From an uncultured archaeon (GTDB lineage Archaea > Altiarchaeota > Altiarchaeia > IMC4 > SCGC-AAA252-I15): DNA of 48,766 bases. The position numbers and the translations under genes were made by a program. The stretch spans positions 1-48,766 of the forward strand of contig CABMCB010000039.1 in assembly GCA_902384455.1 (NCBI GenBank), given 5' to 3'. Of the stretch, positions 5,751-47,917 are shown one piece after another; position 1 is the first letter of the stretch, and the number at the start of each line of letters is the position of its first letter. The notes under the pieces were generated by a model. The model had not been told where the DNA came from and searched no databases. It was given only the letters and a program-made list of their open reading frames with translations.

Positions 5751-6509
5751 CTACTTACTCCTTTTGAGCGTGGTTAGGCTTTTGTATACGAATTCTGCGT
5801 CAACTGCGGGGTTCATTGCTATGCCGCGTTCTATTATGACTGCGGGCACGCCGCATGCTTTGGCTGTTTCTTCCACAACAAGCTGGTTTACTGTTTGGTG
5901 GCGGACGATGTTTTCTGTTGAGGGGTCGCGTTTTCTAAGTCCTGCTTCGTTGTCTTTGATTCTTTGTTTGCTGACTACTTCCGGGTTGTGGTTGAAAAGG
6001 AATATGGCGTCCGGATTAAGTATGTTGAAGACTGACGGCGGCACTCCGATAAGGTAGCCGTTTGGCGTCTCAACGGTCGCATGCGTGTCCACGCAGTAGA
6101 CCATTTTGTTCGTTCCTAAACGGCTCTTTTCTGCTATGGAGGATGCGGCTTTAAGCTGGATTTCTTTTTGCTGTTCGACTGAGAGTTTGGCTCTCATTTC
6201 GTCGCGGTGTTTTATGCCGTAATTTTTGCTTGCGACCTCGAACATTACGTCGCCGTAGTTGAGTATTTTGACTTCGTAGTCCTTGTGGGCTTCCTGAAAC
6301 ACCTTCATAACGTAGCTTTTGCCAACTCCCGGCACTCCGAATATGAGCAGCACAATGGGCGCTTTAGCCGGTTTAGGATTCCATTTGTAGTCACTAAGGC
6401 TTCCGTTGAATCCTTTGTAGTCTACAAGAGACGACTCAAGAGTAACTGCTTTCTGCGCGGCATTGCCGGCAACGCCCGTTGAATCCGAAACGTCCTTATT
6501 TGAGACCAT
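5751..6509 (-). CDS. adkA: Archaeal-type adenylate kinase (AdkA family) with about 50-aa N-terminal extension
   Basis: GVPGVGKS P-loop, NYGDVM, RDEMR, VDTHATVETPNGYLIGVP, LRKRD lid. Confidence 0.85.
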   Translation of the reverse strand: MVSNKDVSDSTGVAGNAAQKAVTLESSLVDYKGFNGSLSDYKWNPKPAKAPIVLLIFGVPGVGKSYVMKVFQEAHKDYEVKILNYGDVMFEVASKNYGIKHRDEMRAKLSVEQQKEIQLKAASSIAEKSRLGTNKMVYCVDTHATVETPNGYLIGVPPSVFNILNPDAIFLFNHNPEVVSKQRIKDNEAGLRKRDPSTENIVRHQTVNQLVVEETAKACGVPAVIIERGIAMNPAVDAEFVYKSLTTLKRSK

Positions 6510-6588
6510 TGTTCATCAGCCGATTATTTTAGGAAAATAAGGTGGTAAGGCAGGTTTATTAATCGCCCGAATTTAATGAATAACGTTT

Positions 6589-7491
6589 ATGGTAACTGCT
6601 TCTGCGCCCGAGGGAATAATACTAGCCGGCGAGCACGTTTACGGAAAAACAACACATTTAATCGCAGCAGCAATACAACACAGAACCCAGGCGACCGCCG
6701 AACCATTAGGCGGAGACATCATCCGTTTAATATGGCCTCCAAACGCTGAAGCGAGCGCCCGCATATTAAGCACGGTGCTTGTTGAGAAGAAGGGTCCGCC
6801 TGAGCTGACTAGCGTTCTTGACGTCGGCGGGCTTGCGGTGGGCGTATACGGGATACGGAAGGGATTCAGCGTGCGTTTGAAAGGCGAAAGCACTTTGAAC
6901 CAGCCCGGCAGGATTATTGCGTCTCAAGTCGCAGTTTTTTCAGCTGTCGCCAAACTAAACAACATAGACGCAAAGCCAGTTGACATGCCCCGCCTGATAT
7001 ACCCTATCGCCAGAAAGCAAGGCCCAATGTCAGACGCTTACATAGTCGCATCATCCCTAGGCGGCGTCCACCTGATAAACACGGAGTCTGCGGAATCCGT
7101 CACCACCCCTCAAACGCTGCTTGTTTACGCTGAGACGCCCTCGGATTCCACACCAAAAAAAGCACCCCCCGAATTAGAAGCACAGTTTAATTCAATCGTA
7201 GAAGAAACGGCGGAACCACTAAAGGCAGGAGACCAAAAACGACTAGGGAACGCATTAAGCGCCCACCAAAAACTCGCTGTAGAAAACGAGCTTATCCCCG
7301 CCTCATCAAGCGAACCCTGCCTAATCGCAGAACAAGCAGGAGCCTTTGGCGCAAAAGGAGGCGAAGGATACGTAATCGCAGCAGCCGGCCCAATGAAGGC
7401 GGAAGAGGTTGTTAAGGCGCTTTCTGAAAAAGGGTTTCCAGCGCACCTGGTTGAATTGGGCGCAATCGGAGTAACATTGAACGGGCCGTAA
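6589..7491 (+). CDS. Mevalonate kinase-like GHMP protein with degenerate catalytic motifs (probable pseudokinase)
   Basis: MVK-like termini (ASAPEGIILAGEH, AAAI, GAFGAKG), but the PGK lysine, the GxGLGSSAA loop and the SGxD aspartate are missing. Confidence 0.7.
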   Translation: MVTASAPEGIILAGEHVYGKTTHLIAAAIQHRTQATAEPLGGDIIRLIWPPNAEASARILSTVLVEKKGPPELTSVLDVGGLAVGVYGIRKGFSVRLKGESTLNQPGRIIASQVAVFSAVAKLNNIDAKPVDMPRLIYPIARKQGPMSDAYIVASSLGGVHLINTESAESVTTPQTLLVYAETPSDSTPKKAPPELEAQFNSIVEETAEPLKAGDQKRLGNALSAHQKLAVENELIPASSSEPCLIAEQAGAFGAKGGEGYVIAAAGPMKAEEVVKALSEKGFPAHLVELGAIGVTLNGP

Positions 7492-8510: not shown

Positions 8511-9500
8511 ATGGACGTAAAGAAACTTCTTTCAGAGAAAAAAGCGCCTGTGGAAGCAGTCATAGGCGAATACACAAGCAACCCAAATCCCAAAGTAAGG
8601 GAGATGCTCTCCCACCCCTTCAAAGCAGGCGGAAAAAGAGTCCGCCCAGCACTACTCCTACTATCCTGCGAAGCAGTAGGCGGAGACCCGCAAAAAGCCC
8701 TGCCAGCAGCCGCATCCGTCGAAATCCTGCACACATTCACCCTAGTCCACGACGACATAATGGACCACGACCTAACAAGAAGAGGCCAACAGACCGTCCA
8801 CGCCAGATGGGGCGAAGAAATGGGGATAGTCGTCGGCGACACACTATACAGCATAGCATTCAAGGCTCTGATGGACTGCCGCAAAAACGGCGTGCCAGAA
8901 AAAAACATCATAGAAGCATTCGAAGTATTCACGTGGGCCAGCATCAAACTGCATCAAGGCCAGATAATGGACATGCTCTTTGAGGAACGCCCCAACGTCA
9001 CAGTAGACGAATACCTCGACATGGTGGACAAAAAAACAGGCGCACTAATAGAAGCAAGCGTCCGAATCGGCTCGGCGATAGGCGGAGGAACAAAAGAACA
9101 GTCCGAAGCTCTCGGCATATTCGGAAGCAGGATAGGAACGGCATTCCAGATAAAAGACGACGTGCTGGGTCTCACGGCAGACGAGAGCGAACTCGGCAAA
9201 CCCGTGGGAAGCGACATACGCCGAGGCAAAAGAAACATCCTCATATCCCACGCATTAGCCCACGCCAAAGGAACACCACTTAGAACGCTCAAAGCAGCGC
9301 TCAAAAACGCCGACGCACCAGACGAGGAAATCAATGAGGCCATACAGATAATCAAGGACGCAGGAAGCTTCGCTTACGCCGAAAAACTGGAGAACAAACT
9401 ATACGAGGAGGCACTCGCCGCATTAAGGACGCTTCCGCCCTCATCGGCCAGAGACGGAATCGAGGCGATAGGAGACTTCATCATAAAAAGGAGCTATTAA
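8511..9500 (+). CDS. idsA: Geranylgeranyl diphosphate synthase (short-chain trans-prenyltransferase)
   Basis: GGKRVRP, FTLVHDDIMD (FARM with Phe at -5), RRG, GQIMD, KTGAL, FQIKDD, GKPVGSD. Start reassigned to ATG 8511, about 33 nt after TATAAA. Confidence 0.93.
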   Translation: MDVKKLLSEKKAPVEAVIGEYTSNPNPKVREMLSHPFKAGGKRVRPALLLLSCEAVGGDPQKALPAAASVEILHTFTLVHDDIMDHDLTRRGQQTVHARWGEEMGIVVGDTLYSIAFKALMDCRKNGVPEKNIIEAFEVFTWASIKLHQGQIMDMLFEERPNVTVDEYLDMVDKKTGALIEASVRIGSAIGGGTKEQSEALGIFGSRIGTAFQIKDDVLGLTADESELGKPVGSDIRRGKRNILISHALAHAKGTPLRTLKAALKNADAPDEEINEAIQIIKDAGSFAYAEKLENKLYEEALAALRTLPPSSARDGIEAIGDFIIKRSY

Positions 9501-9501
9501 G

Positions 9502-10497
9502 ATGACAATCGAAGAGCGCAAAAAAGACCACATACGAATCGCAGTCAAAAACGCGGTGGAAACAGGAAACCCCGGATTCGACAAACTCCGCCTCAAACAC
9601 AAAGTACTCCCGGAAGCAAACTACGACTCAGTCGACACATCCACCACATTCCTCAAACACAAACTCAAAGCTCCAATACTAATCTCCGGCATGACAGGAG
9701 GAACAAACGAAGCACGCCAAATAAACAAAGCCCTCGCCGCCGTAGCCCAAGAATACGGCATAGCATTCGGAGTAGGAAGCGAACGCGCAGCAATAGAAAA
9801 ACCAAAACTCGCACCCACATACCAAGTGCGCGACGTAGCCCCAGACATACTACTAATAGCAAACCTAGGCGCAGTACAACTCAACTACGGATACGGCACC
9901 AAAGAAATCCGCCAAGCAATAGAAATAATCCAGGCAGACGCCATAGCCCTACACGCAAACCCCATACAAGAATCAGTACAACCAGAAGGAGACAGAAACT
10001 TCAGCAACCTAACCGCAAAAATAAACGCCGCAGCCAAAGAACTCAAAGAACCCGTCCTATTCAAAGGTGTCGGCGAAGGCATAAGCAAAGAAGCAGCCCA
10101 AAAACTCAAAGTCGACGCATTCGACGTAGGCGGATGGGGCGGCACAAACTGGGGCCTAATCGAAGGATACCGCCAAGACGAAGCAACACTTGAACGCGGC
10201 CGCCTCTTCTCCAGTTGGGGCACAAGCACCGTGGACAGCATTTTGGCTGTGAGGGATTTGGGTGTGCCGGTAGTGGGAAGCGGAGGCGTCAGGACGGGTG
10301 TGGACGCGGCAAAGGCGTTGGCTTTGGGAGCTGATTTGGTGGGCTTAGCTCGCCCAATTCTTACCGCATATTTTTCCGGCGGGCAGAAGGAAGTTAAACT
10401 CTACATCAACCGGTTCATAGCGGAACTTAAGGTTTCGATGTTTTTGACTGGCGCAGAAAGCGTTAAAGGCCTTAGGGGCCGCGTTGATTTGGTTTGA
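9502..10497 (+). CDS. fni: Type 2 isopentenyl-diphosphate isomerase (FMN-dependent)
   Basis: RKKDH, MTGG, GVGSER, ANLGAVQL, NPIQESVQPEGDRNF, GGTNW, SGGVRTGVDAAKALALGA. Confidence 0.96.
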   Translation: MTIEERKKDHIRIAVKNAVETGNPGFDKLRLKHKVLPEANYDSVDTSTTFLKHKLKAPILISGMTGGTNEARQINKALAAVAQEYGIAFGVGSERAAIEKPKLAPTYQVRDVAPDILLIANLGAVQLNYGYGTKEIRQAIEIIQADAIALHANPIQESVQPEGDRNFSNLTAKINAAAKELKEPVLFKGVGEGISKEAAQKLKVDAFDVGGWGGTNWGLIEGYRQDEATLERGRLFSSWGTSTVDSILAVRDLGVPVVGSGGVRTGVDAAKALALGADLVGLARPILTAYFSGGQKEVKLYINRFIAELKVSMFLTGAESVKGLRGRVDLV

Positions 10498-10500
10498 TTT

Positions 10501-11280
10501 TTAGGTGCCTTGTTTCTTTTTCTTTCGTCTGAATCTTTCTTTTATTCTGCGTGTTTTGTCTTTGATTTCGTTGACGCGGTCTTTTTGTGCGAGTCCTATT
10601 AGTCGGGTGGCGTCTTGTATTGCTGGTTTGACTTTGAATTTGCTTTTTCCTGATATTCTGCGCATGTAGTGGACGCCCACTTCGGAGAGTTTTCCTTTGG
10701 CGTCGTATTTTATGCGTTCAAGAAGTTCCACTTGGATGCTGAAGTATTGGGTGCGGACTCCGGATATGACGGATTTTACTGTTTGGGCGCGGTAGGCTCT
10801 GAATCCTGAGGAGCAGTCTTTTACGTCTAGTCTGAGCATGGCTTTGGCGATGCGGTTGCCTATGCGGGTGGATATGAACCTTTCTTTCTGTAAGTCTACG
10901 TTGGATTCGGCAAGGAATCGGCTTCCGACCACTATGTCGCTTCCGGTTTCCTTAAGCGCCGTGATAAGCAGGGGAATCTCGGAGGGCATGTGGTTTTCCG
11001 CGTCCATAGTCACTATGACGTCGCCTCTTGCGCGGGCTATCCCCTCAAGCAGTGCGTTGGCGAATCCTTTGCCTGACTGGGTGAAGAAAATGAAATTAGG
11101 GTATTCTAAGCTGAATTTTTTAGCCAATGCTGCCGTTCCGTCAACGCTTTTGCCGTCTGCTATGATGACTTCTACGTCTTCTTTTAGTACTCCGTAAATG
11201 TCGGGCACGCGCTCTCTTAGGTTGGCTTCCTCGTTTAATGCGGGGATGACCACCGAAATCTTTGGTTTACTTCGAATCAT
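10501..11280 (-). CDS. GT2 glycosyltransferase, dolichyl/polyprenyl-phosphate glycosyltransferase-like
   Basis: ISVVIPALNE, DGKSVDGT, MDAE (DxD-like), VVGSRF, DCSSGFRAY, RISGKSK. Start moved to ATG 11280, just past the upstream stop. Confidence 0.88.
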   Translation of the reverse strand: MIRSKPKISVVIPALNEEANLRERVPDIYGVLKEDVEVIIADGKSVDGTAALAKKFSLEYPNFIFFTQSGKGFANALLEGIARARGDVIVTMDAENHMPSEIPLLITALKETGSDIVVGSRFLAESNVDLQKERFISTRIGNRIAKAMLRLDVKDCSSGFRAYRAQTVKSVISGVRTQYFSIQVELLERIKYDAKGKLSEVGVHYMRRISGKSKFKVKPAIQDATRLIGLAQKDRVNEIKDKTRRIKERFRRKKKKQGT

Positions 11281-11287
11281 TTTTTTT

Positions 11288-14200
11288 TTATGGGAAAGCT
11301 TCGTCTTCATCGTAGCCGTACCATGGTGCATGCTGGCCTTTTTTGGGGGGCGAACTTTCTTTTCGCCCCTTTAAGTCTTCTTTTTCCGGAAGGGGCAGCG
11401 TTGCGGTCGCGGTCTTCTGCGGTTGTTCCGCGGTTGAAAGGTTAGTATTTTGTTGTTGAGCGTAAATTTGCGCGGACGCCGGAGTTGTTTGCGGGATTAA
11501 GGCGGTGGTTGCCGCGGGCGCATTAAGCGTCGGTTGCTGGGTCTCTGGCGTAGGTTGAGGTGTCTGCTGCGCCATGGACTCCTCAATTTGGCGCACCAAA
11601 GCAATGTTCTCCGGTTGGGAAGTGAATTTAGGTGTTGTTTCAGACTGATTTTGTTGCGCTTTAATCTGTGCGGGGGCGTCGGAAGGCGCAATTCTGCCCT
11701 CCACGGACGTCTGTTGTTGAGGTGCGGTTGACGCGGGTTTATCCGGCAATGCCGCAGGCGCAGCATGGGAGTGATTCCACGTAACTACGATGGGCGGCTG
11801 CTGGACGATGAACGCCGGCTGTTCCATACTCTGAGGTTGAGGTTGCGCTGCCGCAGGCACTTGAGGTTGCTGTATCACCACAGGGGTTTTTACTGCAGAA
11901 ACCGGAGGCATCTGCTTAGGACTTTGAGTAGGCGCTGCAGGTTGAGGCGGCGCAGTTTTTACCGCCTGAGGCGGCCTACCTGCGTAAGATTGTGTCCTAC
12001 TCGGAGTTACAGTAACCTTCGGCAAACCCTCCTTATCGGATTCTATCGCGGCCTTAGTGTCCATCCTAAATTCTGTCGCAGCTTTTTCCGCGTCCCTCCT
12101 CTCAAGCTGCCTAAAGTGCTCAAGCACCCTGTGCGTAGAATCCTCGCCTCCGCTGAAAATCCGCGATAAGAAACCTTTCTTACGCGAAACAGACGCAATA
12201 GGAGACGCGGCCGCAGGTTGCGCTGCCGCAGATAAAGTGGGCTGTTTGGTTGGGGCTGGCATGGCAGACGTCGTAATCGGCGACCTTTTGGTTTTCTCCG
12301 GCAAAATCTGCTCAGGCGCAGCCGGCTTGGACTGCGGGGATAGAGAGGGAACGGACGGTTCGGATTTTTTCAGTGCGGCCTTGGGTTCTATAGCGGGGGC
12401 GGTGGGCTTAGTTGCTTGTTGTTTGGTTGGCGGTGCAATTAGGTTGACGGGCGGAAGGGGTGCGGTTGGCGTAGGTTTCTGTTTTCTGTGCGGAAGTATC
12501 CTCGAAAGGAAGCTCTTCTTCACGTATGGCGGCGCGGCTTCTGCCGCAGGCAAAGTGGGTTGCGGCGAAACAACAGGCGATGCGACAATAGGAACTGTTG
12601 CAGGAGGCTGCTTTTTCACTTCCTCAGGCGGCTTAGGTGGCTTTGCTGCCGGAGGATTAACAGCGAGTTCAGGAGTCCTAAAAGCAGGCTTCACAGACTC
12701 AGGAGGCTTATTAGCGGCCGCCGGTTGAGGCGTGGCAGAAACCGGCTGTTGGCGAGGTTTTAATGTTGCGGCTGCTTTTTCTATGCTGCTTTTTTTGCGG
12801 GGGAATATGCGAGACAGCAACCCCCTCTTTTTCTCTACTGCGGATGCAGGCAGAACGTCAGGTTGTTTCTGATTAGTCGGAGTATAAGCGGCGGGCGGCT
12901 GAGTTTTGACTTCAACGGGGAGTGAAGGCGCTTTAACTTGAGGAGCTGTCTGCGGCATTTGAGGCGCAACCTTAATTGGTTCAGGTTTCACTGCCGCCTG
13001 CGCAGGGGGCTTTCTGATGTTTACTGGCTGCGGCGACGCAGCAACGGCCGGCTTATGCGAAGCCGAAGAAGGAACAACCGCAGCAGGCAAATCATGAACC
13101 TCCACAGCAGAATGCGCCTCATGCTTGTCTGCTGGATGCTTAGTCCTCTTAATCTTAACTTTAACGCCCGCAGTCGCCTTCCTCAAATCCTCCTGCATCC
13201 TAACGGCCCGGTAATAACGGCGGGCTCGAGTCATCAAACTCTCGCCCAAAGGCAAATAACCCTCCTGAAGATGCTGAAGGCCCAGCGGCGCTCCTGCGCG
13301 GGAAAGACCGAAGTAGAACGCCCAAGGTTTTCCGATACGCCGTTCCCTGCTCATCCACGCCCTCATTATGGCGCTTGAGCCTGCACGCTCCCCTTCAACA
13401 GCATACACCGGAACTTCTTCGCCTACGCCGGCGCTGCCGAAACTGAAGCGATGCCAAATCTTGCGCGCTCTTTGCACAAGAAGGAAAAAGACTAAGAACA
13501 CTACTGCAACGATTGCCACTGCGATCATGATAATCTGCTTTTCGCTGGATTCGTTCCCCACGGGCGCGCGAGAAATGGATTTGTTATAAATTGTCTCTGC
13601 CTCAGCGGCCAAATCAGGCTCGGACAAGTTAAGGAACATGTCTCGCGCCTTCAATGAAGAGTCTGCGGCGGTGCGGAAATCCGTAGCGGTAAAGTAAAGC
13701 CGCGCCTCATCCAAATCCTTGGTGGCTTGGCTGAACCCTTGCGCCCTGCTCCTTAGGTTGTCCATTTGGGCGGCTTCTGAAGTCATGCCTAATGACCTAT
13801 AGCTTTCAGCAGCCTGGCCCGCATAGTCTGAGGCGTCGTCATATTCCGTGTCGTCAAACGCCTCTTTCGCCTTCTTGGCTGCGAATCCGGCATTCACGCG
13901 GTTAAGGGTTAATCCGGCTTCCTCTGCTTCGGCGGTGAAATTGGTGTCCCGGTACCCCTTCTCCACGTTCCTAAGCGTCTGTATCAGCCCGTCAGTGAGG
14001 TTGCCGTCTTTTATGTACTGCTTTGCGATCGAGTAGCTTGCTTCAATAGTGGACCTGCGGGCGATTCTGTCCAAGAACATCTGAACGTTGAACACTCCCT
14101 CAGTATCCTTGATTTTAGCGTACCTGTTAAGCGCTTCCCTCGCGTACATACTGGAGTTCTCTATGTCTCCCTCGCCCAGATAGAAGTCTGCCTCCATCAG

Positions 14201-15976: not shown

Positions 15977-16945
15977 ATGTCAAGGGGGCTGAAGTTAACA
16001 CGCCAGCGAGGGCAAAGCAGTATTGAATTGCTCACCGCCATAGGCATGCTGATGCTTGTTTTTATTGCGGTGGGGCTTTACGCCGTGGAAAGAGACGCGC
16101 AAGGCACAGAAATAAAGACGTACATATCAACAACGTCAATATTAGAAAGCCTGCGCGACAACCTAAACACTCTACAAGCTGTGGGGGACGGATACTACCG
16201 CCACTTCACCCTCCCCGCGACAGTATACGGAAACGAAGAATACAACATCACGTCCGGCGGAAACGTGCTGGAAATAAACTGGGGAAACCGGCGCTCATGG
16301 TCAACAGTCACATCCGCGGACAACGCCAGCATACGCTGCCTAAACAAAGGCGGAGACTCCCAAAATCGGGCCGTCAACATCAAAGGGCGGATATACGTTG
16401 CCGGAGGCAGCGAAGACATGTTTTTGTCCGGGGAAACATTCAGCAACATGTCCAACGCGTCCTACGTTAAAGACTCCTCCTACATGGCTCAAAACGGCTC
16501 GTGGACGATAAAATCAGGAAGATTAGACGGCGACTTCCTTATTAACGGCCTAGGAACGGCGTCTTTTGGGATACCTCAGGAGGATTATACTCTTGAAGGG
16601 GACGTTTTGGTAATCAATTCTACCGGCGGATTCGCAGGTTTAATCGTCCGCAAATCCAACGACACGTACGTTAGCGTAGAATTGGATCCCCTAAACGGCA
16701 CAGTCAGCGTCTCATCTGTCGTAGACAACGTGTCTTCGAAAATAAGCTCAGTTCCTTATGCGCTCAACCTTAACCAATGGTACTTCGTCAGGGCGCAAGC
16801 ATACGCAGACGAATTAACCGTAAGCATAGACTGCCAGCAGATTATGGTTGAGTCAGTGCCGCAAACAAAAGGCAACATAGGCGTAACAGCGGCGATGGCG
16901 AACGCGGAATTCGACAACATACAGGAATGGGGGTACCGCCGATGA
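15977..16945 (+). CDS. Class III signal peptide pilin-like protein with C-terminal ConA/LamG-like domain
   Basis: RQRG|QSSIELL (Glu at +5) followed by a hydrophobic helix; C-terminal beta-sandwich motifs LNQWYxVRA, GNIGV, AEFDNI. Confidence 0.8.
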   Translation: MSRGLKLTRQRGQSSIELLTAIGMLMLVFIAVGLYAVERDAQGTEIKTYISTTSILESLRDNLNTLQAVGDGYYRHFTLPATVYGNEEYNITSGGNVLEINWGNRRSWSTVTSADNASIRCLNKGGDSQNRAVNIKGRIYVAGGSEDMFLSGETFSNMSNASYVKDSSYMAQNGSWTIKSGRLDGDFLINGLGTASFGIPQEDYTLEGDVLVINSTGGFAGLIVRKSNDTYVSVELDPLNGTVSVSSVVDNVSSKISSVPYALNLNQWYFVRAQAYADELTVSIDCQQIMVESVPQTKGNIGVTAAMANAEFDNIQEWGYRR

Positions 16946-17460
16946 GCTCCCGCGCAGGACAGATGTACGCGGGAGAATTCGTAATAAGCTACTTCATATT
17001 CATGATAGTACTATCCCTAGCATTCTACATGTGGGGAAACACCACCCAAGGCTTAATGGAGTCTGAAACATTCTACGCGATAGAAGACGCCGCAGTAGAA
17101 ACCGCCGAAACTTTGGTTAGAACGCCCGGAAACCCCTCCGACTGGAACGCGTCAACAGTAACATCCATTGGGTTGGCCGACGAAAGCCGGATACTCAACT
17201 CAAACAAGATAATGGCCATGGCCGCCCTCCTGAACAACTCAAACGGAAACTACGAGGCAAACCGCTACCTTCTGGGTGTGGGTCAATACGACATGTACGT
17301 TAACTTAACTTACCTGAACGGCTCTACTTTGCTGATAAACGGCGCGCAGGCCGTAGCCGGAAGTCCGCCTGTGAACTCTACTTATCAGCTTACTATAGTT
17401 AGGACTGCGATAGTAAACGATACTGTGGTCCGAATCATAGTTACTGCATGGCAAACTTGA
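16942..17460 (+). CDS. Minor pilin-like protein (class III signal peptide)
   Basis: ATGA overlap with the previous stop; RAG|QMYAGEF plus hydrophobic helix; LVRTPGNPSDW...IGLA motif of archaeal pilus-locus proteins. Confidence 0.8.
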   Translation: MSSRAGQMYAGEFVISYFIFMIVLSLAFYMWGNTTQGLMESETFYAIEDAAVETAETLVRTPGNPSDWNASTVTSIGLADESRILNSNKIMAMAALLNNSNGNYEANRYLLGVGQYDMYVNLTYLNGSTLLINGAQAVAGSPPVNSTYQLTIVRTAIVNDTVVRIIVTAWQT

Positions 17461-21508: not shown

Positions 21509-21541
21509 CTGTTTAAAACCGCAAAACAAATAACACAACAT

Positions 21542-22591: not shown

Positions 22592-22601
22592 GGAAACCGC
22601 G

Positions 22602-24293: not shown

Positions 24294-24355
24294 TACCTGT
24301 CGGCATCTTTTATCCTGCCGTTGCCATCACCTAACAACAAGCCGATACTCCTTCA

Positions 24356-25258: not shown

Positions 25259-25259
25259 G

Positions 25260-27581: not shown

Positions 27582-27647
27582 TCTCAATTACCTCACTGGA
27601 GGCGTCTTATCGTTGTACCATATTGCTCAGCAACCTATAAAACCGCC

Positions 27648-28883: not shown

Positions 28884-28957
28884 ACCATACCTATTTTCGG
28901 CTAATATTAAAAATGCCTCCCACAGTCTTCTTTTAAGGAATTGACTCATACTTCAAC

Positions 28958-30030: not shown

Positions 30031-30096
30031 GCCGGCTCTTAAATCCTTGTCTGTTTAACGTAAACTTATTAAAGAACAGTGCCCTGAACCTAACAG

Positions 30097-30492: not shown

Positions 30493-30559
30493 AGAGACAT
30501 TTTTCCGCCGCACAAAGACGGCAGACATTCTTAACCGCCTTCCACGAAATTACCCTAAC

Positions 30560-31642: not shown

Positions 31643-31645
31643 ACT

Positions 31646-33142: not shown

Positions 33143-33213
33143 AATCAACCTCCATACACTCTAGGTAAAATCTTTATATAGCCAAGATGCCCCCGCAGCA
33201 GAACCCTTTTACA

Positions 33214-33888
33214 TCACATGTACTTGTGCATCATATACAAGACGACGAATACGCCCACAAGAGCCGCACCCACCTCCAAATAAGGAAACGCGCCCCCCGA
33301 CTGAGAACCATTAGCCTTTGCCAATTCAGCCGCCCTCTTCGCCTCCTCGATAGTAACGCACTTCCACCCGCTTGCGCACACTCTGCCGCGCGGGCAATCT
33401 GAATCCTTCACGCACTCCATGACGGAATACTCAACTTTAATCTCCCTCCTTTTCGTAACCGTACCGTCCTTCCCATAGGCGACCACAAGGACGCTTTCGT
33501 TGCCGCTCAAATTCCCAGAAGCAATAATATGGCGAGGTATGCTGCCGACTGAAACAAAGCAGCCATCAAGGTTACTCCAGGAGCAGCCAGCTCCGGAGCA
33601 ACCTAAAGTTCCATTAAAATTCCCCCCCGAAAAAGAAGCAAAAGGACGCTCGCCCTCAACCAACACGCAAACGTCCTTAACCAAATCATCCAAATTCACC
33701 ACATCAACCCTAACAGTAAAAGCGCTAGCCGAAGTATTACACCTCAAAACCGAACCCGCAGAAGAACAAAGCCCATTCAAAGAACGCACACTCAAATTAA
33801 CGCCGCCAGAATCATCCTCCAACACCGCCTGACCGCACACCTGAACCACAAAAACAGCCAAAACCAAAGCAACCAAAAAAAACCTCAT
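33214..33888 (-). CDS. Hypothetical surface protein with small Cys-rich module and C-terminal TM anchor
   Basis: Signal peptide; ECVKDSDCPRGRVCASGWKCV; C-terminal hydrophobic helix. Confidence 0.75.
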   Translation of the reverse strand: MRFFLVALVLAVFVVQVCGQAVLEDDSGGVNLSVRSLNGLCSSAGSVLRCNTSASAFTVRVDVVNLDDLVKDVCVLVEGERPFASFSGGNFNGTLGCSGAGCSWSNLDGCFVSVGSIPRHIIASGNLSGNESVLVVAYGKDGTVTKRREIKVEYSVMECVKDSDCPRGRVCASGWKCVTIEEAKRAAELAKANGSQSGGAFPYLEVGAALVGVFVVLYMMHKYM

Positions 33889-34029
33889 CACTAACCAATT
33901 CAACCCCACAATTTAAAATAAGCGATTTATTAAGCGAAACTCCCCCATACTCCACATACGAACGAATGTATTCCGACTCCGAACGAGCTCGACTTGATTC
34001 TGTAGTGAAAGGAGTACAAAAATAGGAAG

Positions 34030-35481: not shown

Positions 35482-35530
35482 AACCCGCGCTTTTATACTC
35501 CTCTAACCACGATTGTAACAGGACATTAAA

Positions 35531-35701
35531 ATGGCCGACGCAAGCATGAAGCAGATTTTCGCCTACTCCGCAGGCGTAAGCTTCCTAGGCAGCATCCTGG
35601 TGCAATACTTACGAAACCGCGCAATAGACCCCCTATTCACAATCATATTCACGGTGCTCGTGGGAATGCTGATGGCCGCCTACTTCAGCCAGAAGCAGTA
35701 A
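35531..35701 (+). CDS. Small two-TM membrane protein (56 aa), not in ORF track
   Basis: MADASMKQIFAYSAGVSFLGSILVQYLRNRAIDPLFTIIFTVLVGMLMAAYFSQKQ; fills the gap; TTTTATA lies about 40 nt upstream. Confidence 0.6.
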   Translation: MADASMKQIFAYSAGVSFLGSILVQYLRNRAIDPLFTIIFTVLVGMLMAAYFSQKQ

Positions 35702-35728
35702 GGCGTTTCTTTAATCTGCCGCTAAGAA

Positions 35729-38116
35729 CTACGCTGAAAGAACAATACTTTCTTTCTCTCCTTCCTCTACCGTGAGATTCTGAATCTTGCCTGTGCCGGC
35801 GACATCAGACAGCACCGCCTCAGCGTCGGCGCGTCTGCCTGCGGGAACAGTTATAACTGCGCTTGCGATATCAGCGCCAAGAGACATGCTTTTTTCAGTC
35901 TTGAAGCGGCGCACCTCGGCGATAAGAGAACGAGCAAGCTCGCCTCGCGCCTCAGCCATAGAATCCTTCAAAGACACGTCAACCTCAGGCCAAGAAGCCT
36001 TAGACGCAGGCACTTTGAACAACGACTCATGAACTTCATCGCAAACATGCGGAGTAAAAGGCGACAAAAGCTTAAGCAACGTAGACAAAGCCGTCGCAAG
36101 AACAAACTGCGCGGCACGCTTACTCTCAACGCCATAAACCTCAGGCTTATACAACCTATGCTTCACCATCTCCAAATAATCATCAGCCAACTCATGCCAA
36201 ATAAACGAACGCAAATCAGTCATCGGCCTGTTGAATACGTAGCCGTCAAGAGACGCAGTGCACTCCTCAGTCAAACTCGCAAGCCTCGAAAGCATCCACC
36301 TGTCTACGTCCCTAAGCTCTCCTCTGCTTCCGTCATAATCCGCAATCTGACCCTCAACAAACCGGCTGATATTCCACAACTTATTCAAAAACCGCTGGCT
36401 ATGCTCGCACTCCTCCCACGAAAACGGGTAATCCTCGCCAAGTGAGCCGCCTGCAGCCCACTGCCTCAAAGAATCCGCGCTATACTTAGTAAGCGGCTGC
36501 TCAGGCTCAATCACATTATTCAAACTCTTACTCATCTTACGTCCATCAGGCCCAGCAACCATGCCGTTAACCATCAAATCCCTAAAACACGGCTGACCAG
36601 TCAAAATCAAATTGCGGAAAATAGTGTAAAACGTCCAAGTACGAATAATCTCATAACCCTGCGGCCTCAAGCTCGCAGGATAAGTCGCCTTATGGAAGTG
36701 GTCGTCTACGCCCCACTTAGAGACCATAAGCGGCGTAACGCTGGAATCCACCCAACAATCGCAAACGTCAACCTCCCCGACAGCCTCATCGTGGCATTTA
36801 TGGCACTTGCGGGTCGTACCTCTGGGGTCGACAGGCAACTCGCTTTCCTTAGCGGGTTCTACTGTGCCGCATTTCTTGCAGACCCAAAAAGGTATAGGAG
36901 TCCCGAAAGTCCTCTGGCGGCTGATAATCCAATCCCAATCCATGCTCCCAGTCCAATCCTTAAGCCGCCCCAACATGTACGGCGGATACCAGTTCATGGA
37001 CTCCGCGGCCTTCTCAACGTCCGGGAGGCTGTCTGAAACTTTGATGAACCACTGTTCCATCGGCAAAAGTTCTATTGGGCTTTTGCATGACGCGCGTTCC
37101 GTGTGGCAAAGCACGTTATGGCACCGCTCCTCAATCTTCTTGATGAACCCCCTGTTCTCAAGGTCTGCGACAAAGTTCTTGCGCGCCTCCTTAACCGGCT
37201 GACCCCCGTAAGGTCCGGCGGCCTCCGTCATAGTGCCGTCTGGGGCTATGGCTTGGACTACCGGTAGGTTGTACTGCTTCTGCCATTTGATGTCCTGTTC
37301 GTCCCCGAAAGTGCACAGGTAAACCACCCCAGTCCCGAATTCCTTGTCCACAACGGGGTCTGCGATTATGGGGACTTCCTGCCCGAAGACAGGCATCTTA
37401 GCCTTCTTTCCAACGAATTTAGTGTAACGCTCGTCCTCCGGGTGGACGAAGACCGCAACGCAAGCAGGCATCATTTCAGGCCGCGTCGTTGCTATGGTGA
37501 GCCGGTCTTTTCCGCCGGCAACTTCAAGGTCAATGTAATAGAGTTTTCCTGGCTTCTCCTCATAACCTGTTTCAGCTTTGGCAAGCGCAGTCCCGCATTG
37601 CGTACACCACAAAACCGGGTGCTTTGCCCTGTAAAGAAGGTCCTTTTTATAGAAAATCAGCAGAGTCCTCTGGACGAGCCTCTTGTAATAGTCGTCCATA
37701 GTCCTGTAAGAATAATCCCAGTCGCTACTGTAACCTATGCTTTGGAACTGACTCTTCATCCGCGCAACAGCCTTCTCAGTCCAATCGCGGCAGGCCGCAA
37801 GGAAGGCGTCCCTGTTTCTGGGATCCACCTTCATCTTCTTCTCAACCTGCAATTCAGTAGGAAGCCCGTGGCAGTCGAACCCCTGCGGCAGATAAACGTT
37901 GAACCCCCGCATCCTCTTGTATCTGGCTACAGTGTCAATCCAAACGTGATTGAAAATGTGCCCCATATGGAGAGTGCCCGACGTGAAAGGAGGCGGAGTA
38001 TCAAAACTGTAAACCGGCTTGCCGCCCTCAGCCTTAAAGCGGAAAAAACCCTCATCAAGCCAACGCTTCTGCCACCGCGGCTCCAACTCCTTAGGCTCGT
38101 AACGTTTCGAAAGCAT
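35729..38116 (-). CDS. valS: Valine--tRNA ligase (archaeal type)
   Basis: DTPPPFTSGTLHMGH, GFDCHGLPTE, ATTRPE, WIISRQR, QGYEIIRTW, KMSKS. Start ATG 38116 after an AGGTGG SD. Confidence 0.97.
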   Translation of the reverse strand: MLSKRYEPKELEPRWQKRWLDEGFFRFKAEGGKPVYSFDTPPPFTSGTLHMGHIFNHVWIDTVARYKRMRGFNVYLPQGFDCHGLPTELQVEKKMKVDPRNRDAFLAACRDWTEKAVARMKSQFQSIGYSSDWDYSYRTMDDYYKRLVQRTLLIFYKKDLLYRAKHPVLWCTQCGTALAKAETGYEEKPGKLYYIDLEVAGGKDRLTIATTRPEMMPACVAVFVHPEDERYTKFVGKKAKMPVFGQEVPIIADPVVDKEFGTGVVYLCTFGDEQDIKWQKQYNLPVVQAIAPDGTMTEAAGPYGGQPVKEARKNFVADLENRGFIKKIEERCHNVLCHTERASCKSPIELLPMEQWFIKVSDSLPDVEKAAESMNWYPPYMLGRLKDWTGSMDWDWIISRQRTFGTPIPFWVCKKCGTVEPAKESELPVDPRGTTRKCHKCHDEAVGEVDVCDCWVDSSVTPLMVSKWGVDDHFHKATYPASLRPQGYEIIRTWTFYTIFRNLILTGQPCFRDLMVNGMVAGPDGRKMSKSLNNVIEPEQPLTKYSADSLRQWAAGGSLGEDYPFSWEECEHSQRFLNKLWNISRFVEGQIADYDGSRGELRDVDRWMLSRLASLTEECTASLDGYVFNRPMTDLRSFIWHELADDYLEMVKHRLYKPEVYGVESKRAAQFVLATALSTLLKLLSPFTPHVCDEVHESLFKVPASKASWPEVDVSLKDSMAEARGELARSLIAEVRRFKTEKSMSLGADIASAVITVPAGRRADAEAVLSDVAGTGKIQNLTVEEGEKESIVLSA

Positions 38117-38232
38117 CAGTCCACCTGAAAAACAGATAATACATAAATACGACGCCCCTATTAAAACCGCCGAAACCAAAACGCAAACAAAACCGCAACA
38201 GAATATATAAACCACCACTCTGAGTAAGTAGC

Positions 38233-39015
38233 ATGGTAGACCTAATCGCAGCCGTCCTATCAATAATCTTCTCCTTCGCCTTCGCCATACCCTTCCTCCT
38301 TGTGGGCCTAGGATTCCTCGGAGCATTCTTCAAGATAATCCGCCAATACGAGCGAGGAATACTGTTCGCATTCGGAAAATACGCGGGAACACTCAAACCC
38401 GGCCTAAACATAATAATCCCATTCTACCACCGCGTCCAAGTAGTCGACCTAAGACTAAACACACTGGAAGTGCCCAAACAAGAAGTCATGACCAAAGACA
38501 ACGTTCCAGTCAACATAAACGCAGTCATCTACTTCAAAGTCAACAAACCCGAAAAAGCAGTGCTAAACGTAGAAGACTACAACTACGCAGTAGCCAAATA
38601 CGGCCAAACCAGCCTGAGAAACGTGTCTGGCGAAATAACGCTCGACCAACTGCTTTCGGAACGCCAGCAGATAGCCGACAAACTAAGGATAATAGTCGAC
38701 AAAGCGACAGAACCATGGGGAATAGAAGTAGTCCACCTCGAACTCCAAGACATAGAGGTGCCAGACACCCTAAAGCGGACGATGGCCAAGCAGGCTGAAG
38801 CCGAGCGCGAACGCCGCGCAGTCATAATAAGCAGCGAAGGAGACGTCGCAGCAAGCGGAAACCTCGCCAAAGCCGCCGCCCTATTGGGAGGCGCTCCCGG
38901 CGCACTGCACCTGAGGACGCTTCAGTCACTAAACGACATAGCAAGCGACGAAACCAACTCAGTCATATTCATAGTGCCTCTGGAAACACTCAGGGCATAC
39001 GAGGAGGTAGACTAA
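38233..39015 (+). CDS. SPFH/stomatin-like (slipin) protein with N-terminal TM
   Basis: QYERGI, PGL, VDLR, QEVMTKDNV, WGIEV, MAKQAEAERERRA, LRTLQ. Confidence 0.92.
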   Translation: MVDLIAAVLSIIFSFAFAIPFLLVGLGFLGAFFKIIRQYERGILFAFGKYAGTLKPGLNIIIPFYHRVQVVDLRLNTLEVPKQEVMTKDNVPVNINAVIYFKVNKPEKAVLNVEDYNYAVAKYGQTSLRNVSGEITLDQLLSERQQIADKLRIIVDKATEPWGIEVVHLELQDIEVPDTLKRTMAKQAEAERERRAVIISSEGDVAASGNLAKAAALLGGAPGALHLRTLQSLNDIASDETNSVIFIVPLETLRAYEEVD

Positions 39016-39016
39016 A

Positions 39017-39814
39017 ATGTGCCTCAAAGTCATAAACCAATACGAAAAAGGAGTCCTCTTCGGATTCGGAAACTACGTCGGCGAAAGAGGACCAGGCCTA
39101 AACATAATCCTACCCCTATACCACGACATAGTCATAGTCGACACCCGCGTAAAGACAATTGAAATACCCAAACAGGAGGCCATGACTAAAGACAACGTGC
39201 CGGTCAACATCAACGCAGTCCTGCTTTTCAGCATCGTAGACGCGAGCAAGGCGGTGCTGAACGTCCGCGACGTCATATACGCGGTATCCAAATACGCTCA
39301 GACAAGCATGAGAAACGTCATAGGCGAAACCACGCTTGACGAACTGCTTTCGGAACGCCAGCAGATAGCAGACAAACTCAAAGAAATCATAGACAAAAGC
39401 GTGGAAAAATGGGGCATAGACGTCACAGCAATAGAGCTACAGGACATAGAACTCCCCGACAGCCTCAAACGCACAATGGCCAAGCAGGCTGAAGCCGAGC
39501 GCGAACGCCGAGCAGTCATAATAAACAGCGAAGGAGAACTGGCAGCAGCCAAAAACATAGTGAAAGCCGCAAACACCCTATACAACTCAACCGGGGCACT
39601 ACACTTAAGGACGCTGCACGCAATCAACGACCTATCAAGCGACCAAAGCAAAACAACCGTATACGCAGTGCCAATAGAACTACTACGCGTGCTTGAACGC
39701 ACAGTCGACGTCCTAGAAGACGCCCACGGAAAAAACAAGAAAGAAGCCGCAGAAACCGCCGACAAAAAAGAAGGAAAAAAACAAGCAAAAAAACCAAATG
39801 ACGGCGGTATTTGA
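39017..39814 (+). CDS. Second SPFH/stomatin-like paralog lacking the N-terminal TM
   Basis: Same motifs; starts directly at MCLKVINQYEKG; Lys/Glu-rich tail. Confidence 0.9.
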   Translation: MCLKVINQYEKGVLFGFGNYVGERGPGLNIILPLYHDIVIVDTRVKTIEIPKQEAMTKDNVPVNINAVLLFSIVDASKAVLNVRDVIYAVSKYAQTSMRNVIGETTLDELLSERQQIADKLKEIIDKSVEKWGIDVTAIELQDIELPDSLKRTMAKQAEAERERRAVIINSEGELAAAKNIVKAANTLYNSTGALHLRTLHAINDLSSDQSKTTVYAVPIELLRVLERTVDVLEDAHGKNKKEAAETADKKEGKKQAKKPNDGGI

Positions 39815-40178
39815 CTTCCTAGAACCGGACCACAAGAAACTATGGGCATTCATCTGCTTCATACTCCTATTCTCCCTAACCGTAGCCATATTCACCCCAG
39901 AATGCTTCCTAGGCCAATGCCTAGTCACCCAAAATAAACCAGAAACAGGAACAGCAATATACCTGCTGCAGTATGCCTTCATCTCAATCGGCGTATTCTT
40001 CAACTTCCTGATACACTCCGGAAACACACTATCCGAGTTTCTTACGGACGCATTCCCCTACTTTACTATGCCCTATTCGCCGGCAATAGAAGGAGTGTCT
40101 CTGGCGACCTACGTAGCCATCATCCTGTGGTTCCTGTCCTGCGCAATCACGTGGATGCAGGAAAAAATAAGAGGATAA
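39798..40178 (+). CDS. Hypothetical membrane protein (3 hydrophobic segments)
   Basis: Overlaps the SPFH stop; hydrophobic helices; Cys pair. Confidence 0.65.
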   Translation: MTAVFDFLEPDHKKLWAFICFILLFSLTVAIFTPECFLGQCLVTQNKPETGTAIYLLQYAFISIGVFFNFLIHSGNTLSEFLTDAFPYFTMPYSPAIEGVSLATYVAIILWFLSCAITWMQEKIRG

Positions 40179-45432: not shown

Positions 45433-45511
45433 CCCACAGTCAGCCCCCGTAGAAGAAGCCTCAACATAGCGGTTTTCCCCATTCTTAAGCCGCCTCACCT
45501 AATTTCCTCGT

Positions 45512-47917
45512 ATGGATAAGAATCAACGTTTCATCCTCTGGTTCGACGAACTCGGCATAGAAGACGTACCCACCGTCGGAGGAAAAAACGCAAGCCTCGG
45601 CGAAATGTACAGGAAACTCTCAGCCGCAGGCGTCCAAGTACCAAACGGATTCGCAATCACCGCATACGCATACAGGACACTTCTTAAAGACGCGGGAATA
45701 GAAGCCGGGATACGCGAAATACTCAAAGACCTGGACACCAAAGACATCCAAAACCTAATGGACCGCGGCAAAAAAGTCCGCGACCTGATACAAAAAGCCA
45801 AATTCCCCCCGCAACTAGAAAAAGAAATCATAGAGGCCTACGAAAAACTATCTCAACAATACGGCACAGACGCGACAGACGTCGCAGTACGCTCATCCGC
45901 CACAGCAGAAGACCTACCCGACGCCTCATTCGCAGGCCAACAAGAAACCTACCTCAACATCCACGGAGACCACCACGTAATAGACGCATGCAAAAAATGC
46001 TTCGCAAGCCTATTCACCAACAGAGCCATAAGCTACCGGGTAGACAAAAAATTCGACCACTTCAGCGTCTACCTCAGCATAGGCATACAAAAGATGGTCA
46101 GAAGCGACCTCGCCTCATCCGGCGTAATGTTCAGCATAGACACAGAAAGCGGATTCAAAGACGCAGCCTTCATCACAGCCTCATACGGACTCGGCGAAAA
46201 CATCGTCCAAGGAGAAGTAGACCCAGACGAATACTACGTCTTCAAACCCACACTCAAGCAAGGCAAACGCTCCATCATAAGCAAAAAAGTAGGCACCAAG
46301 GCGCTGAAGATGATATACACCCAAGACGGCACCAAACCCACAAAAAACGTCCGCGTACCACAAGCAGACCAACGCCGATACGCACTCACAGAAGACGAAA
46401 TAATGATACTCGCCACATGGGCCTGCATAATAGAAGACCACTACAACAAACCCATGGACATGGAATGGGCAAAAGACGGCGCAACAAACCAACTATTCAT
46501 AGTACAAGCCCGCCCCGAAACAGTACACAGCCAAGAAAACAAAAACGTATTCGAACAATACGTCCTCAAAGGAAAAGGCCCAGTACTCGTCAAAGGAGGC
46601 GCCGTCGGCAGTAAAATCGGCGCAGGAAAATCCCACGTAATCAAAAGCGTCCACGAAATCAAAAACTTCAAGGAAGGCGAAGTACTCGTCACAGAAATGA
46701 CGGACCCAGACTGGGAACCCATAATGAAAATCGCCTCCGCAATAGTCACAAACCACGGAGGCCGCACCTGCCACGCAGCAATAGTATCCCGCGAACTTGG
46801 GATTCCCTGCGTCATAGGAACAGGAAACGCCACTGAACTCATGGCAAACGTCGCAGACGCCACAGTCAGCTGCGCCGAAGGAGCCGAAGGCATAGTCTAC
46901 GAAGGAAAAATTCCCTATGAAATACAACGTACAATCCTCGACACACTCCCGCGCCCCAAAACAAAAATAATGATGAACATAGGCATACCCGAACAAGCAT
47001 TCGAACAAAGCTTCATACCAAACGACGGAGTAGGACTAGCCCGAGAAGAATTCATCATAAACAGCTACATCAAAATCCACCCCATGGCGCTCTTCCACTA
47101 CGAAGAACTCAAAAACGACCCCCAAAAAGCAGAAACCATACGCCAAATAGACGAACTAACCGTAGGATACGCCGACAAAACCCAATTCTTCATAGACAAA
47201 CTAGCAATGGGAATAGCAACACTAGGCGCAGCATTCCACCCCAAAGACGTCATAGTCCGACTATCCGACTTCAAAAGCAACGAATACGCCAACCTAATAG
47301 GCGGCCAATACTACGAACCCACAGAAAGCAACCCAATGATAGGATGGCGAGGAGCAAGCCGCTACTACGACGACAAATACCGCGAAGCATTCGGCCTCGA
47401 ATGCAAAGCATTCAAGAAAGTCCGCGACGAAATGGGACTCACCAACGTAAAAATAATGGTCCCATTCTGCCGCACAGTAGCCGAAGGAAAATCAGTGCTC
47501 GCGGAAATGGAAAAGTACGGCTTAAAGCGCGGCGTAAACGGCCTTGAAGTGTATGTTATGTGCGAGATACCCAGCAACGTTATTCTATCTGACCAGTTCA
47601 GCGAGATTTACGACGGATTCTCGATTGGAAGCAACGACCTCACGCAGCTGACGCTCGGGCTGGACCGAGACAGCGAATTGGTCGCGCACATATACGACGA
47701 AAGAAACGACGCGGTCAAACGCCTAGTCAAGCAGGCCATCGAAGGCGTCCACAAATACAAGAGGAAGATAGGCATCTGCGGGCAGGCGCCAAGCGACTAC
47801 CCGGAGTTCGCCGAGTTCCTCGTGGAATGCGGCATAGACAGCATAAGCCTAAACCCAGACACCGTAATAAAGACGACAATAGCAATCGCAGAGAAAGAAA
47901 AGAAACTGGGACGCTGA
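45512..47917 (+). CDS. ppsA: Phosphoenolpyruvate synthase
   Basis: VGGKNASLGEM, VRSSATAEDLPDASFAGQQETY, GGRTCHAAI phospho-His, RLSDFKSNEY, SIGSNDLTQ, ICGQAPSD. Confidence 0.97.
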   Translation: MDKNQRFILWFDELGIEDVPTVGGKNASLGEMYRKLSAAGVQVPNGFAITAYAYRTLLKDAGIEAGIREILKDLDTKDIQNLMDRGKKVRDLIQKAKFPPQLEKEIIEAYEKLSQQYGTDATDVAVRSSATAEDLPDASFAGQQETYLNIHGDHHVIDACKKCFASLFTNRAISYRVDKKFDHFSVYLSIGIQKMVRSDLASSGVMFSIDTESGFKDAAFITASYGLGENIVQGEVDPDEYYVFKPTLKQGKRSIISKKVGTKALKMIYTQDGTKPTKNVRVPQADQRRYALTEDEIMILATWACIIEDHYNKPMDMEWAKDGATNQLFIVQARPETVHSQENKNVFEQYVLKGKGPVLVKGGAVGSKIGAGKSHVIKSVHEIKNFKEGEVLVTEMTDPDWEPIMKIASAIVTNHGGRTCHAAIVSRELGIPCVIGTGNATELMANVADATVSCAEGAEGIVYEGKIPYEIQRTILDTLPRPKTKIMMNIGIPEQAFEQSFIPNDGVGLAREEFIINSYIKIHPMALFHYEELKNDPQKAETIRQIDELTVGYADKTQFFIDKLAMGIATLGAAFHPKDVIVRLSDFKSNEYANLIGGQYYEPTESNPMIGWRGASRYYDDKYREAFGLECKAFKKVRDEMGLTNVKIMVPFCRTVAEGKSVLAEMEKYGLKRGVNGLEVYVMCEIPSNVILSDQFSEIYDGFSIGSNDLTQLTLGLDRDSELVAHIYDERNDAVKRLVKQAIEGVHKYKRKIGICGQAPSDYPEFAEFLVECGIDSISLNPDTVIKTTIAIAEKEKKLGR

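Follow-up and report, generated by a model that had tools for sequence, protein, structure and literature searches.

The window analysed here is contig CABMCB010000039.1, a stretch of 48,766 nucleotides from an uncultured archaeon of the Altiarchaeota. Third codon positions in the window, and on the other archaeal contigs of the same genome, are arranged in short tracts in which a given DNA strand is either rich in A and C (AC tracts) or rich in G and T (GT tracts). The tetranucleotide GGCC is a polar anchor of these tracts. On either strand, the sequence 3' of GGCC is GT-rich and the sequence 5' of GGCC is AC-rich; because the polarity holds on either strand, a GT tract on one strand appears as an AC tract on the other. 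A preliminary description of the window had reported the skew and suggested that its breakpoints be tested for a shared motif, and GGCC is the motif that this test found. The feature described there is a real and very unusual one, and the class of explanation proposed for it was roughly right. Our own interpretation is tentative, and we would give it somewhat less than an even chance. It is that a previously undescribed process, in which nicking at a lineage-specific word (GGCC here, GATC or GAGC/GAGCTC in sister genera) keeps provoking inaccurate resynthesis in one direction, has rewritten about half of the chromosome's silent sites into polar AC/GT tracts. No description of a motif-anchored compositional skew was found in the full-text literature searched.

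Skew within the genes of the window

The skew observed in the window is genuine and greatly exceeds what chance would give. Of the dinB codons at 30902-30961, 20 of 20 end in A or C, and 0 of 20 do so at 31262-31321, exactly as had been counted before, and these extremes of opposite sign lie 360 bases apart. The gene is intact across the flip: its product matches the Pfam families IMS, IMS_HHH_1 and IMS_C up to residue 356, and the IMS_C domain (residues 248-356) is unbroken across the GT tract at 31240-31546. Likewise, all 20 codons at 9841-9900 of fni end in A or C, and the gene is GT-rich from about 10215 on. Other flips had been listed as well. The one near 25600 is a GT tract (25604-25745), but those at 23300-23340 and 47500-47640 merely go back to neutral, and the one at 17500-17620 is weakly GT, with an A/C fraction of 0.44 in a 200-bp window.

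Taken gene by gene, the third-position A/C fraction of the + strand is 0.87 in ppsA, 0.80 in fni, 0.64 in valS and 0.60 in kdpA; it is 0.31 in the adkA-like gene (5751-6509) and 0.22 in GT2. The whole 48-kb window is AC-rich on this strand. The patches stand well above chance when synonymous codons are permuted within each of the 30 Pfam-supported genes of the window (200 shuffles). Sliding windows of 20 codons with at least 19 or at most one A/C ending number 1240, compared to 456 +/- 39 after shuffling (maximum 551). Three genes contain both extremes, a combination seen in none of the 200 shuffles, and the lag-1 autocorrelation of the third-position class is 0.239 versus 0.008.

GGCC as the anchor of the tracts

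Genome-wide skew was analysed on the 43 clearly archaeal contigs (1.65 Mb) of the source genome, G000, a bin of 2.41 Mb in 103 contigs in which the window is contig C39. Genes were called with a greedy heuristic for open reading frames (ORFs), which gave 2225 ORFs of at least 100 amino acids. Tracts were called with a three-state hidden Markov model (HMM) on the third-position A/C class (states 0.17, 0.51 and 0.85), the borders of which are precise only to several codons.

Among the 16 palindromic tetramers, the left-minus-right asymmetry in A/C content is +0.045 +/- 0.001 for GGCC and at most 0.009 for the others. GGCC also comes first in a screen of all 256 tetramers (D 0.049, z = 58; next 0.011), and the top 5- and 6-mers of the screen all contain it. 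The effect is positive in 40 of the 40 skewed contigs of at least 8 kb. Unskewed viral contigs serve as a control, since they come from the same assembly as the skewed archaeal ones; there the GGCC asymmetry is -0.001.

The ends of the tracts show the same polarity. A GGCC lies within 15 bp of 38% of 683 right ends of AC tracts and 37% of 629 left ends of GT tracts (chance 11%), and within 30 bp of 56% of these anchored ends (20% by chance). The opposite ends are depleted of GGCC within 15 bp (3.8% and 3.7%), and five control words show no enrichment at tract ends. The window repeats this pattern, with 14 of 44 anchored ends but 0 of 44 far ends within 15 bp of a GGCC (chance 9.8%). The switch in composition is centred within about 10 nucleotides of GGCC, whereas the other end of the tract is diffuse, and the mean GGCC enrichment fades over about 600 bp. 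GGCC is equally common at the anchored ends of tracts that leave the coding strand AC-rich (AC-coding, 670) or GT-rich (GT-coding, 294), namely at 39%.

When the states on the two sides of each GGCC are tabulated, the polarity is close to absolute for the strongest class. AC-to-neutral, neutral-to-GT and AC-to-GT changes are found 570, 514 and 91 times, compared to 112, 106 and 0 in the reverse sense; the corresponding figures for the control word CCGG are 256, 252 and 30 versus 303, 248 and 3. The 91 two-sided sites are close to the 79 or so that arithmetic on this table predicts if the two sides are independent. The extended word GCGGCCGC is two-sided more often (8 of 87 sites), and three of the five sharpest junctions in the window (10196, 12714 and 31230) coincide with it. 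Preferences in the bases flanking GGCC cannot be separated from the tract's own composition. If GGCC were a compositional by-product of the tracts, the sign should be the reverse, because GG followed by CC would come naturally where GT gives way to AC and is least stable of all where AC gives way to GT.

The words TATAAA/TTTATA have a weak polarity of opposite sign (-0.02 in G000 and +0.04 in the related genome G012). This is presumably an effect of gene orientation that is unrelated to the anchored tracts.

Extent of the tracts and nature of the base change

AC tracts hold 24.7% of the codons on the archaeal contigs and GT tracts 21.8%. There are about 1,600 tracts, with a median length of about 270 bp, a 99th percentile of about 2 kb and an upper range of 2-4 kb. 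Third positions have an autocorrelation of 0.33 at lag 1, which has not fallen below 0.14 at a lag of 100 codons.

In AC-coding tracts the codons GAC, AAC, TTC and TAC make up 93-96% of their own two-fold pairs and AAA and GAA 83-88%, while four-fold sites consist of A (0.42), C (0.41), G (0.12) and T (0.06). The codon usage of GT-coding tracts is approximately the mirror image. Silent sites are thus saturated up to about 95%, the T-to-C/A-to-G direction being more saturated than its counterpart. Codon positions 1 and 2 shift mildly, and amino acids drift (Thr, Ile, Lys and Asn as opposed to Val, Leu, Gly and Phe) in the direction that the bias predicts, with Thr at 8.1% versus 4.3% and Val at 6.2% versus 10.6%. 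Intergenic DNA is affected too, its A/C fraction being 0.62 by AC tracts, 0.50 by neutral segments and 0.37 by GT tracts. The intergenic skew and the mild shifts at positions 1 and 2 therefore indicate a process at the level of DNA, and not codon selection alone or read conversion. What acts here is a pressure on the DNA itself, mostly towards transitions, which purifying selection has long been filtering.

Adjacent third-position classes still correlate within segments that the HMM calls neutral (0.17 at lag 1, 0.07 at lag 2 and about 0.02 beyond). This could come from very short tracts that the model does not resolve or from a neighbour-dependent effect on mutation.

Anchor words in relatives

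Five relatives were sampled, at 200-420 kb each, and GGCC has no polarity effect in any of them. Other words take its place. In both genomes of one genus (G028 and G024), GATC has the polarity that GGCC has in G000 (z = 9.0 and 10.8; CGATCG 0.027-0.033), and in another genus (G015 and G007) GCTC/GAGC is polar and GAGCTC leads the hexamers (z = 13 and 7.3). In two further genomes no anchor word of this kind is seen. Because relatives show the same polarity at other words, the anchored-tract process is a lineage trait, the specificity of which changes between genera as that of defence-type enzymes does. The relatives are less strongly patchy, the variance of 200-bp windows being 2-5 times binomial in them and 9.4 times in G000. 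Patchy skew is visible at ppsA in several relatives, its strength differing at the same gene, and patch maps of congeners at ppsA show saturated silent sites.

The ppsA of the window is best matched by records of Candidatus Altiarchaeota, at 71-72% identity. No congener of the source genome was among the genomes compared, and a metagenome scan based on dinB found no relative. Poly-A/T words top the word screen in G012 and G036, presumably another effect of gene orientation.

Proposed mechanism

In our judgement the chances are about even that the tracts begin with a nick or excision on one strand, at a site specific to the lineage, after which a gap opens or DNA is resynthesised in one direction only, with a bias towards transitions, and purifying selection then acts on the outcome. 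An enzyme with GGCC specificity would nick or excise one strand, the two strands firing independently of each other, and the ensuing one-directional gap or strand-displacement resynthesis would leave transitions in a single direction. Two versions can be envisaged. The strand remade 3' of the nick could gain G and T through G-T wobble misincorporation, or else a gap 5' of the nick could expose the template, so that deaminated C and A would be copied and the new strand would gain A and C. The two versions fit equally well and give the same picture at a palindrome. Since the site would persist, the same strand would be rewritten repeatedly until silent sites saturate, while purifying selection would preserve the first and second codon positions. 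Selection, or transcription coupling, would favour those tracts that leave the coding strand AC-rich. A flip within a gene would then be either two opposite-strand tracts meeting at one site or simply the end of a tract.

Two-sided sites are as frequent as independence predicts, which speaks for nicks rather than obligate double-strand breaks, and against forks that always run the same way. The stronger saturation of the T-to-C/A-to-G direction fits either a T:dGTP error of Y-family type or unrepaired hypoxanthine; a dinB and a gene of the UDG family are both encoded in the window. The preliminary description had put forward a positionally fixed, strand-asymmetric mutation or repair process with sub-kilobase domains and many initiation sites, and the GGCC-anchored tracts support it. 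Its appeal to deamination of single-stranded DNA holds if the gap opens 5' of the nick, but only then, and mispairing of G with T by a polymerase is equally good. Chromatin phasing, also mentioned there, finds no support.

Several observations weigh against strand-specific nicking as the source of the tracts. About 23% of GGCC sites, and no more, sit at the start of a tract. Conversely, about 60% of the anchored ends have no GGCC within 15 bp, including that of the GT tract at 5772, which the anchor leaves unexplained; this figure is soft, because HMM borders are good only to several codons. GGCC should itself decay at AC-to-GT junctions, so that something must preserve it. The coding-sense statistics rest on heuristic gene calls. 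The source genome is a metagenome bin, and no public contig that matches the window spans a flip. The enzymes that would be expected are also elusive. Neither a C5 methyltransferase (PF00145) nor Vsr (PF03852) was found in G000, which is 92% complete; absence of a gene from a bin is no proof of true absence. A HaeIII-family nuclease was not found there either, in a search whose control was silent too, and DndC (TIGR03183) is above its cut-off in 0 of 41 genomes. Finally, GATC has no polarity effect in G000 despite a resident DpnII-type system, and no member of the DpnII family was found in G024, although the GATC effect is present there.

Four other hypotheses were raised and dropped. A 5-methylcytosine/Vsr model fails with the two genes just named. 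GGCC and GATC are known target words of Dnd phosphorothioation, which was set aside since DndC was not found; DndE (PF08870) was detected in 0 of 41 genomes, in a search whose control matched nowhere either. Loss of the O6-alkylguanine transferase is contradicted by Ogt, which G000 encodes, as do 33 of 41 genomes. No switch in skew is observed at the Cdc6 gene. Endonuclease V was found neither in G000 nor in any of 20 genomes of the family to which G000 belongs, and 8 of 14 genomes of a sister family encode it; lack of the enzyme is not enough as a cause, because most of those 20 genomes show little skew at ppsA.

Alternative explanations

Self-restriction is an unlikely, but the most serious, alternative. 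A Type II enzyme would cut both strands at poorly protected GGCC sites, and 5'-to-3' resection, recombinational repair and error-prone fill-in would make the DNA GT-rich in the 3' direction on both strands. The geometry is right, resection lengths match those of the tracts, and the anchor word varies by genus as restriction specificities do. G028 combines a DpnII-family nuclease with the GATC effect, and the more frequent two-sidedness of GCGGCCGC sites points the same way. Most active sites are one-sided, however (570 and 514 compared to 91), with two-sided sites hardly above the number expected under independence. The case is thereby weakened, although selection against GT-coding tracts could mask two-sidedness. 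Neither a GGCC nuclease, with the control silent, nor a C5 methylase was found in G000. An apparently intact DpnII-family GATC nuclease does adjoin an N6/N4 methylase on an archaeal contig (G000:C71:218575-220380), and the archaeal contigs are strongly depleted of GATC (802 sites in 1.65 Mb), yet GATC is without effect there. On another contig, an N6/N4 methylase-like frame with eight stop codons (G000:C94:38495-39718) looks like a decayed modification gene.

A recombination mosaic, raised in the preliminary description, is very unlikely. The tracts would be imports from lineages with an opposite skew or none at the locus, ending at GGCC since restriction cuts incoming DNA; restriction-bounded imports are known in bacteria. 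Such an origin would suit borders that are sharp and unrelated to gene ends, as well as the differing strength of skew at the same gene among relatives. It predicts no polarity, however, and cannot explain why GGCC marks one end only and always the same end (37-38% of AC right and GT left ends, the other ends being below chance), or why GT-to-AC changes at GGCC number 0 and AC-to-GT changes 91. Moreover, an AC allele and a GT allele would disagree at almost one base in three, leaving little homology for exchange, and no close relatives were found that could be donors.

Replication is an equally improbable source, whether through very many origins and termini or through lagging-strand fragments primed at GGCC that start with low-fidelity synthesis. 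The G+T versus A+C axis is that of replication skews, consecutive tracts share polarity more often than not (996 versus 588), and the + strand of the window is AC-rich across 48 kb. Against this stand 588 polarity switches, 297 from AC to GT and 291 from GT to AC, or roughly one every 2.8 kb across the 1.65 Mb, which exclude ordinary replichore skew, as had been argued before. There is no switch around the Cdc6 gene (C71:9855-11150), both strands fire at the same site at the rate of independence, which a fixed fork direction forbids, and a core primase would not switch its word between genera.

Transcription or translation is, if anything, a still poorer candidate for making the tracts, be it through selection for NNC/NNA codons or through transcription-coupled mutation with exceptions by read-through. 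Gene orientation does leave a mark. AC-rich coding strands outnumber GT-rich ones by a factor of 2.3 to 4 (670 versus 294 tracts and 492 versus 125 genes), a cluster of ribosomal-protein and elongation-factor genes on C32 is strongly AC-coding, and the weak TATAAA effect runs in the opposite sense. The earlier statement that the skew follows the strand and not the gene must be qualified to this extent, but it stands in that neighbours of opposite orientation share the sign of the DNA strand 75 times versus 26, and gene orientation does not account for all of the skew. At convergent and divergent junctions the two sides have the same DNA-strand state in 43 cases versus 5. Tract borders fall within 30 bp of a gene end no more often than random positions do (8.4% in both cases), and 135 of 717 long genes contain tracts of both polarities. 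valS and kdpA, which are real genes (the KdpA Pfam score is 725 bits), contain long GT-coding runs, and the metagene profile at starts and stops has an effect of merely 0.02. The sign is thus not set by gene orientation and the borders are not at transcript ends, as they would be in transcription-associated asymmetry. Nor is the skew confined to in-frame positions of expressed genes, as under translational codon selection, since it is intergenic as well and tracts run across convergent ends. GT patches had been associated with convergent gene ends; borders show no enrichment there, and the patches in question are tracts that run through the gene ends (same-state junctions 21 versus 3). GGCC is given no role by any of this. 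Transcription or translation probably modulates which tracts persist rather than making them.

An artefact of sequencing, assembly or binning is the least probable explanation: although the bin of 103 contigs includes 0.53 Mb of foreign phage-like contigs and no reads cross the flips, the change is concentrated at silent sites while proteins remain intact with strong Pfam matches, which conversion or chimeras would not produce, no such skew affects the phage-like contigs that share the bin, a similar pattern with other words occurs elsewhere in the order, and a public sequencing run that holds 7% of the sampled words has, for positions 20001-40000, four short contigs identical to the window and one partial match (none across a flip).

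Comparison with known systems

Kataegis and hypermutable resected single strands in yeast are clusters of strand-coordinated mutations at breaks. The archaeal tracts resemble them in that strand-specific transitions extend over hundreds to thousands of bases and the mutated strand switches at the break point; the strand switch at GGCC (91 versus 0) and the tract lengths are those of lesion-associated, strand-coordinated mutagenesis, with a presumed lesion at GGCC itself. Kataegis consists of single events in cell lineages, whereas the tracts are a fixed and saturated evolutionary state. We infer, furthermore, that 5'-to-3' resection combined with cytosine deamination would give a sign opposite to that seen here.

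In the second phase of somatic hypermutation, a programmed eukaryotic process initiated by AID, an excision patch is refilled by an error-prone polymerase. The likeness lies in the local lesion that leads to a patch of low-fidelity resynthesis with strand-biased substitutions nearby, but somatic hypermutation is not anchored at a fixed word. Such a word is found in Vsr repair and in the archaeal T/G mismatch glycosylase of Methanothermobacter, which is linked to a GGCC methylase. There, too, a short methylated palindrome (GGCC in the archaeal case) is where repair begins, and resynthesis occurs 3' of the nick, although patches of the Vsr type are about 10 nucleotides or less, compared to a median of about 270 bp here.

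Skews in strand composition usually serve as maps of replication or transcription; here a 4-bp word sets the skew on a scale of kilobases, and silent sites come near saturation. In vertebrate mitochondria, strand-displacement replication and deamination of the exposed strand produce the asymmetry of the heavy and light strands. The archaeal tracts share with these mitochondria the A+C versus G+T axis, the predominance of third positions, the reading of most genes from the AC-rich strand and the role of transitions. They are more extreme, with NNC codons reaching 93-96% at two-fold pyrimidine sites. Instead of one exposed strand of a single polarity with a gradient from the origins, there are some 1,600 short tracts of both polarities, interspersed at kilobase scale and anchored at a 4-bp word. 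Replichore skew is likewise a G+T versus A+C asymmetry of complementary strands that affects silent sites, but it is far weaker and flips only at the origin and terminus, whereas here a switch occurs about every 2.8 kb and none lies at Cdc6. Related work on strand asymmetry includes PMC3269015 and PMC3269012 for mitochondria and PMC5291525 and PMC12999951 for replichores.

If the proposed mechanism is true, the tracts would record the patch length and direction of a repair process in an uncultivated organism, and composition would reveal, from sequence alone, the polarity, length and error spectrum of such processes in organisms that cannot be cultivated. The anchor word would be a sequence-readable fossil of an enzyme's specificity, and defence-like specificities would be tied to long-term genome composition and amino-acid drift. 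Binning by composition, growth predictors based on codon usage, and phylogenies would all be biased in such genomes.

Map of the window and other features

Tracts and anchors of the window are collected in Table 1, together with examples of spurious ORFs and the unskewed contigs of the bin.

Table 1. Skewed tracts and GGCC anchors in the window, spurious ORFs and unskewed contigs
Feature	Position	Genes or context	Third-position A/C	Anchor or remark
GT tract	5772-6291	adkA-like gene		anchored end without GGCC, nearest 244 bp away
AC tract (+ strand)	8555-10212	polyprenyl synthase gene and most of fni (HMM)	0.86	right end, the anchored one, at GCGGCCGC; GGCC at 10198, 12 bp from tract end
GCGGCCGC anchor	10196-10203	fni		+ strand goes from AC-rich to GT-rich
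GT tracts	10485-10948 and 11014-11248	last fni codons and convergent GT2 gene	0.08 and 0.20	left anchored end of first tract 6 bp from GGCC at 10477
AC tract, GCGGCCGC and GT tract	12650-12809	all within 1546-aa FG-GAP/PQQ gene		GCGGCCGC at 12714-12721
AC tract, longest in window	19354-23285	pilus-like locus (3.9 kb)	0.89	right end 12 bp from GGCC at 23271
AC tract	23501-25490	spans T2SSE/T2SSF genes (HMM)
GT tract	25604-25745	within second T2SSF gene	0.10	left end 16 bp from GGCC at 25587
AC tract	30366-31237	first two thirds of dinB	0.88
GCGGCCGC anchor	31230-31237	at dinB flip
GT tract	31240-31546	dinB 3' part	0.20
AC tract (+ strand)	35924-36692	within minus-strand valS, codons there ending in G/T		GGCC at 36663, 28 bp from anchored end
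AC tract	45532-47494	most of ppsA	0.92	closest GGCC to right end at 47540, 48 bp off
Spurious ORFs (+)	19064-21508, 36029-36445, 37442-38128; G000:C32:35124-35786	opposite or overlapping real genes
Unskewed phage-like contigs	C1, C4, C10, C25, C28, C34, C38, C40, C59, C61, C68, C69, C100	G000

Stop codons are nearly absent from both strands of skewed tracts, and 13% of the GT-coding ORF calls are antisense as judged by codon-position composition. Because both strands of a tract are nearly stop-free, gene callers produce long false antisense ORFs, and automatic annotation of such genomes will over-call genes.

Skewed genes are absent or next to absent on 13 contigs of the bin (529 kb), where the lag-1 autocorrelation is 0.03. 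Only 3 of their 551 proteins match other contigs of G000, and they encode a tail tube initiator, a DnaG-type primase, a bacterial-type sliding clamp, a T4-type RNA ligase, and UvrD and SNF2 helicases. They look like a mis-binned very large virus. The contamination estimate for the bin, 0.9%, does not expose them. GATC is nearly gone from these contigs (7 sites in 529 kb, with GGATCC at 0), a depletion that would fit a virus adapted to this or a similar host.

At the left end of the window's contig a kdpABC-kdpD operon is truncated. A type IV pilus-like locus at 15977-26252, comprising a T2SSE ATPase, two T2SSF membrane proteins, a DUF2226 protein and several ORFs without a family, lies almost entirely within the longest AC tracts.

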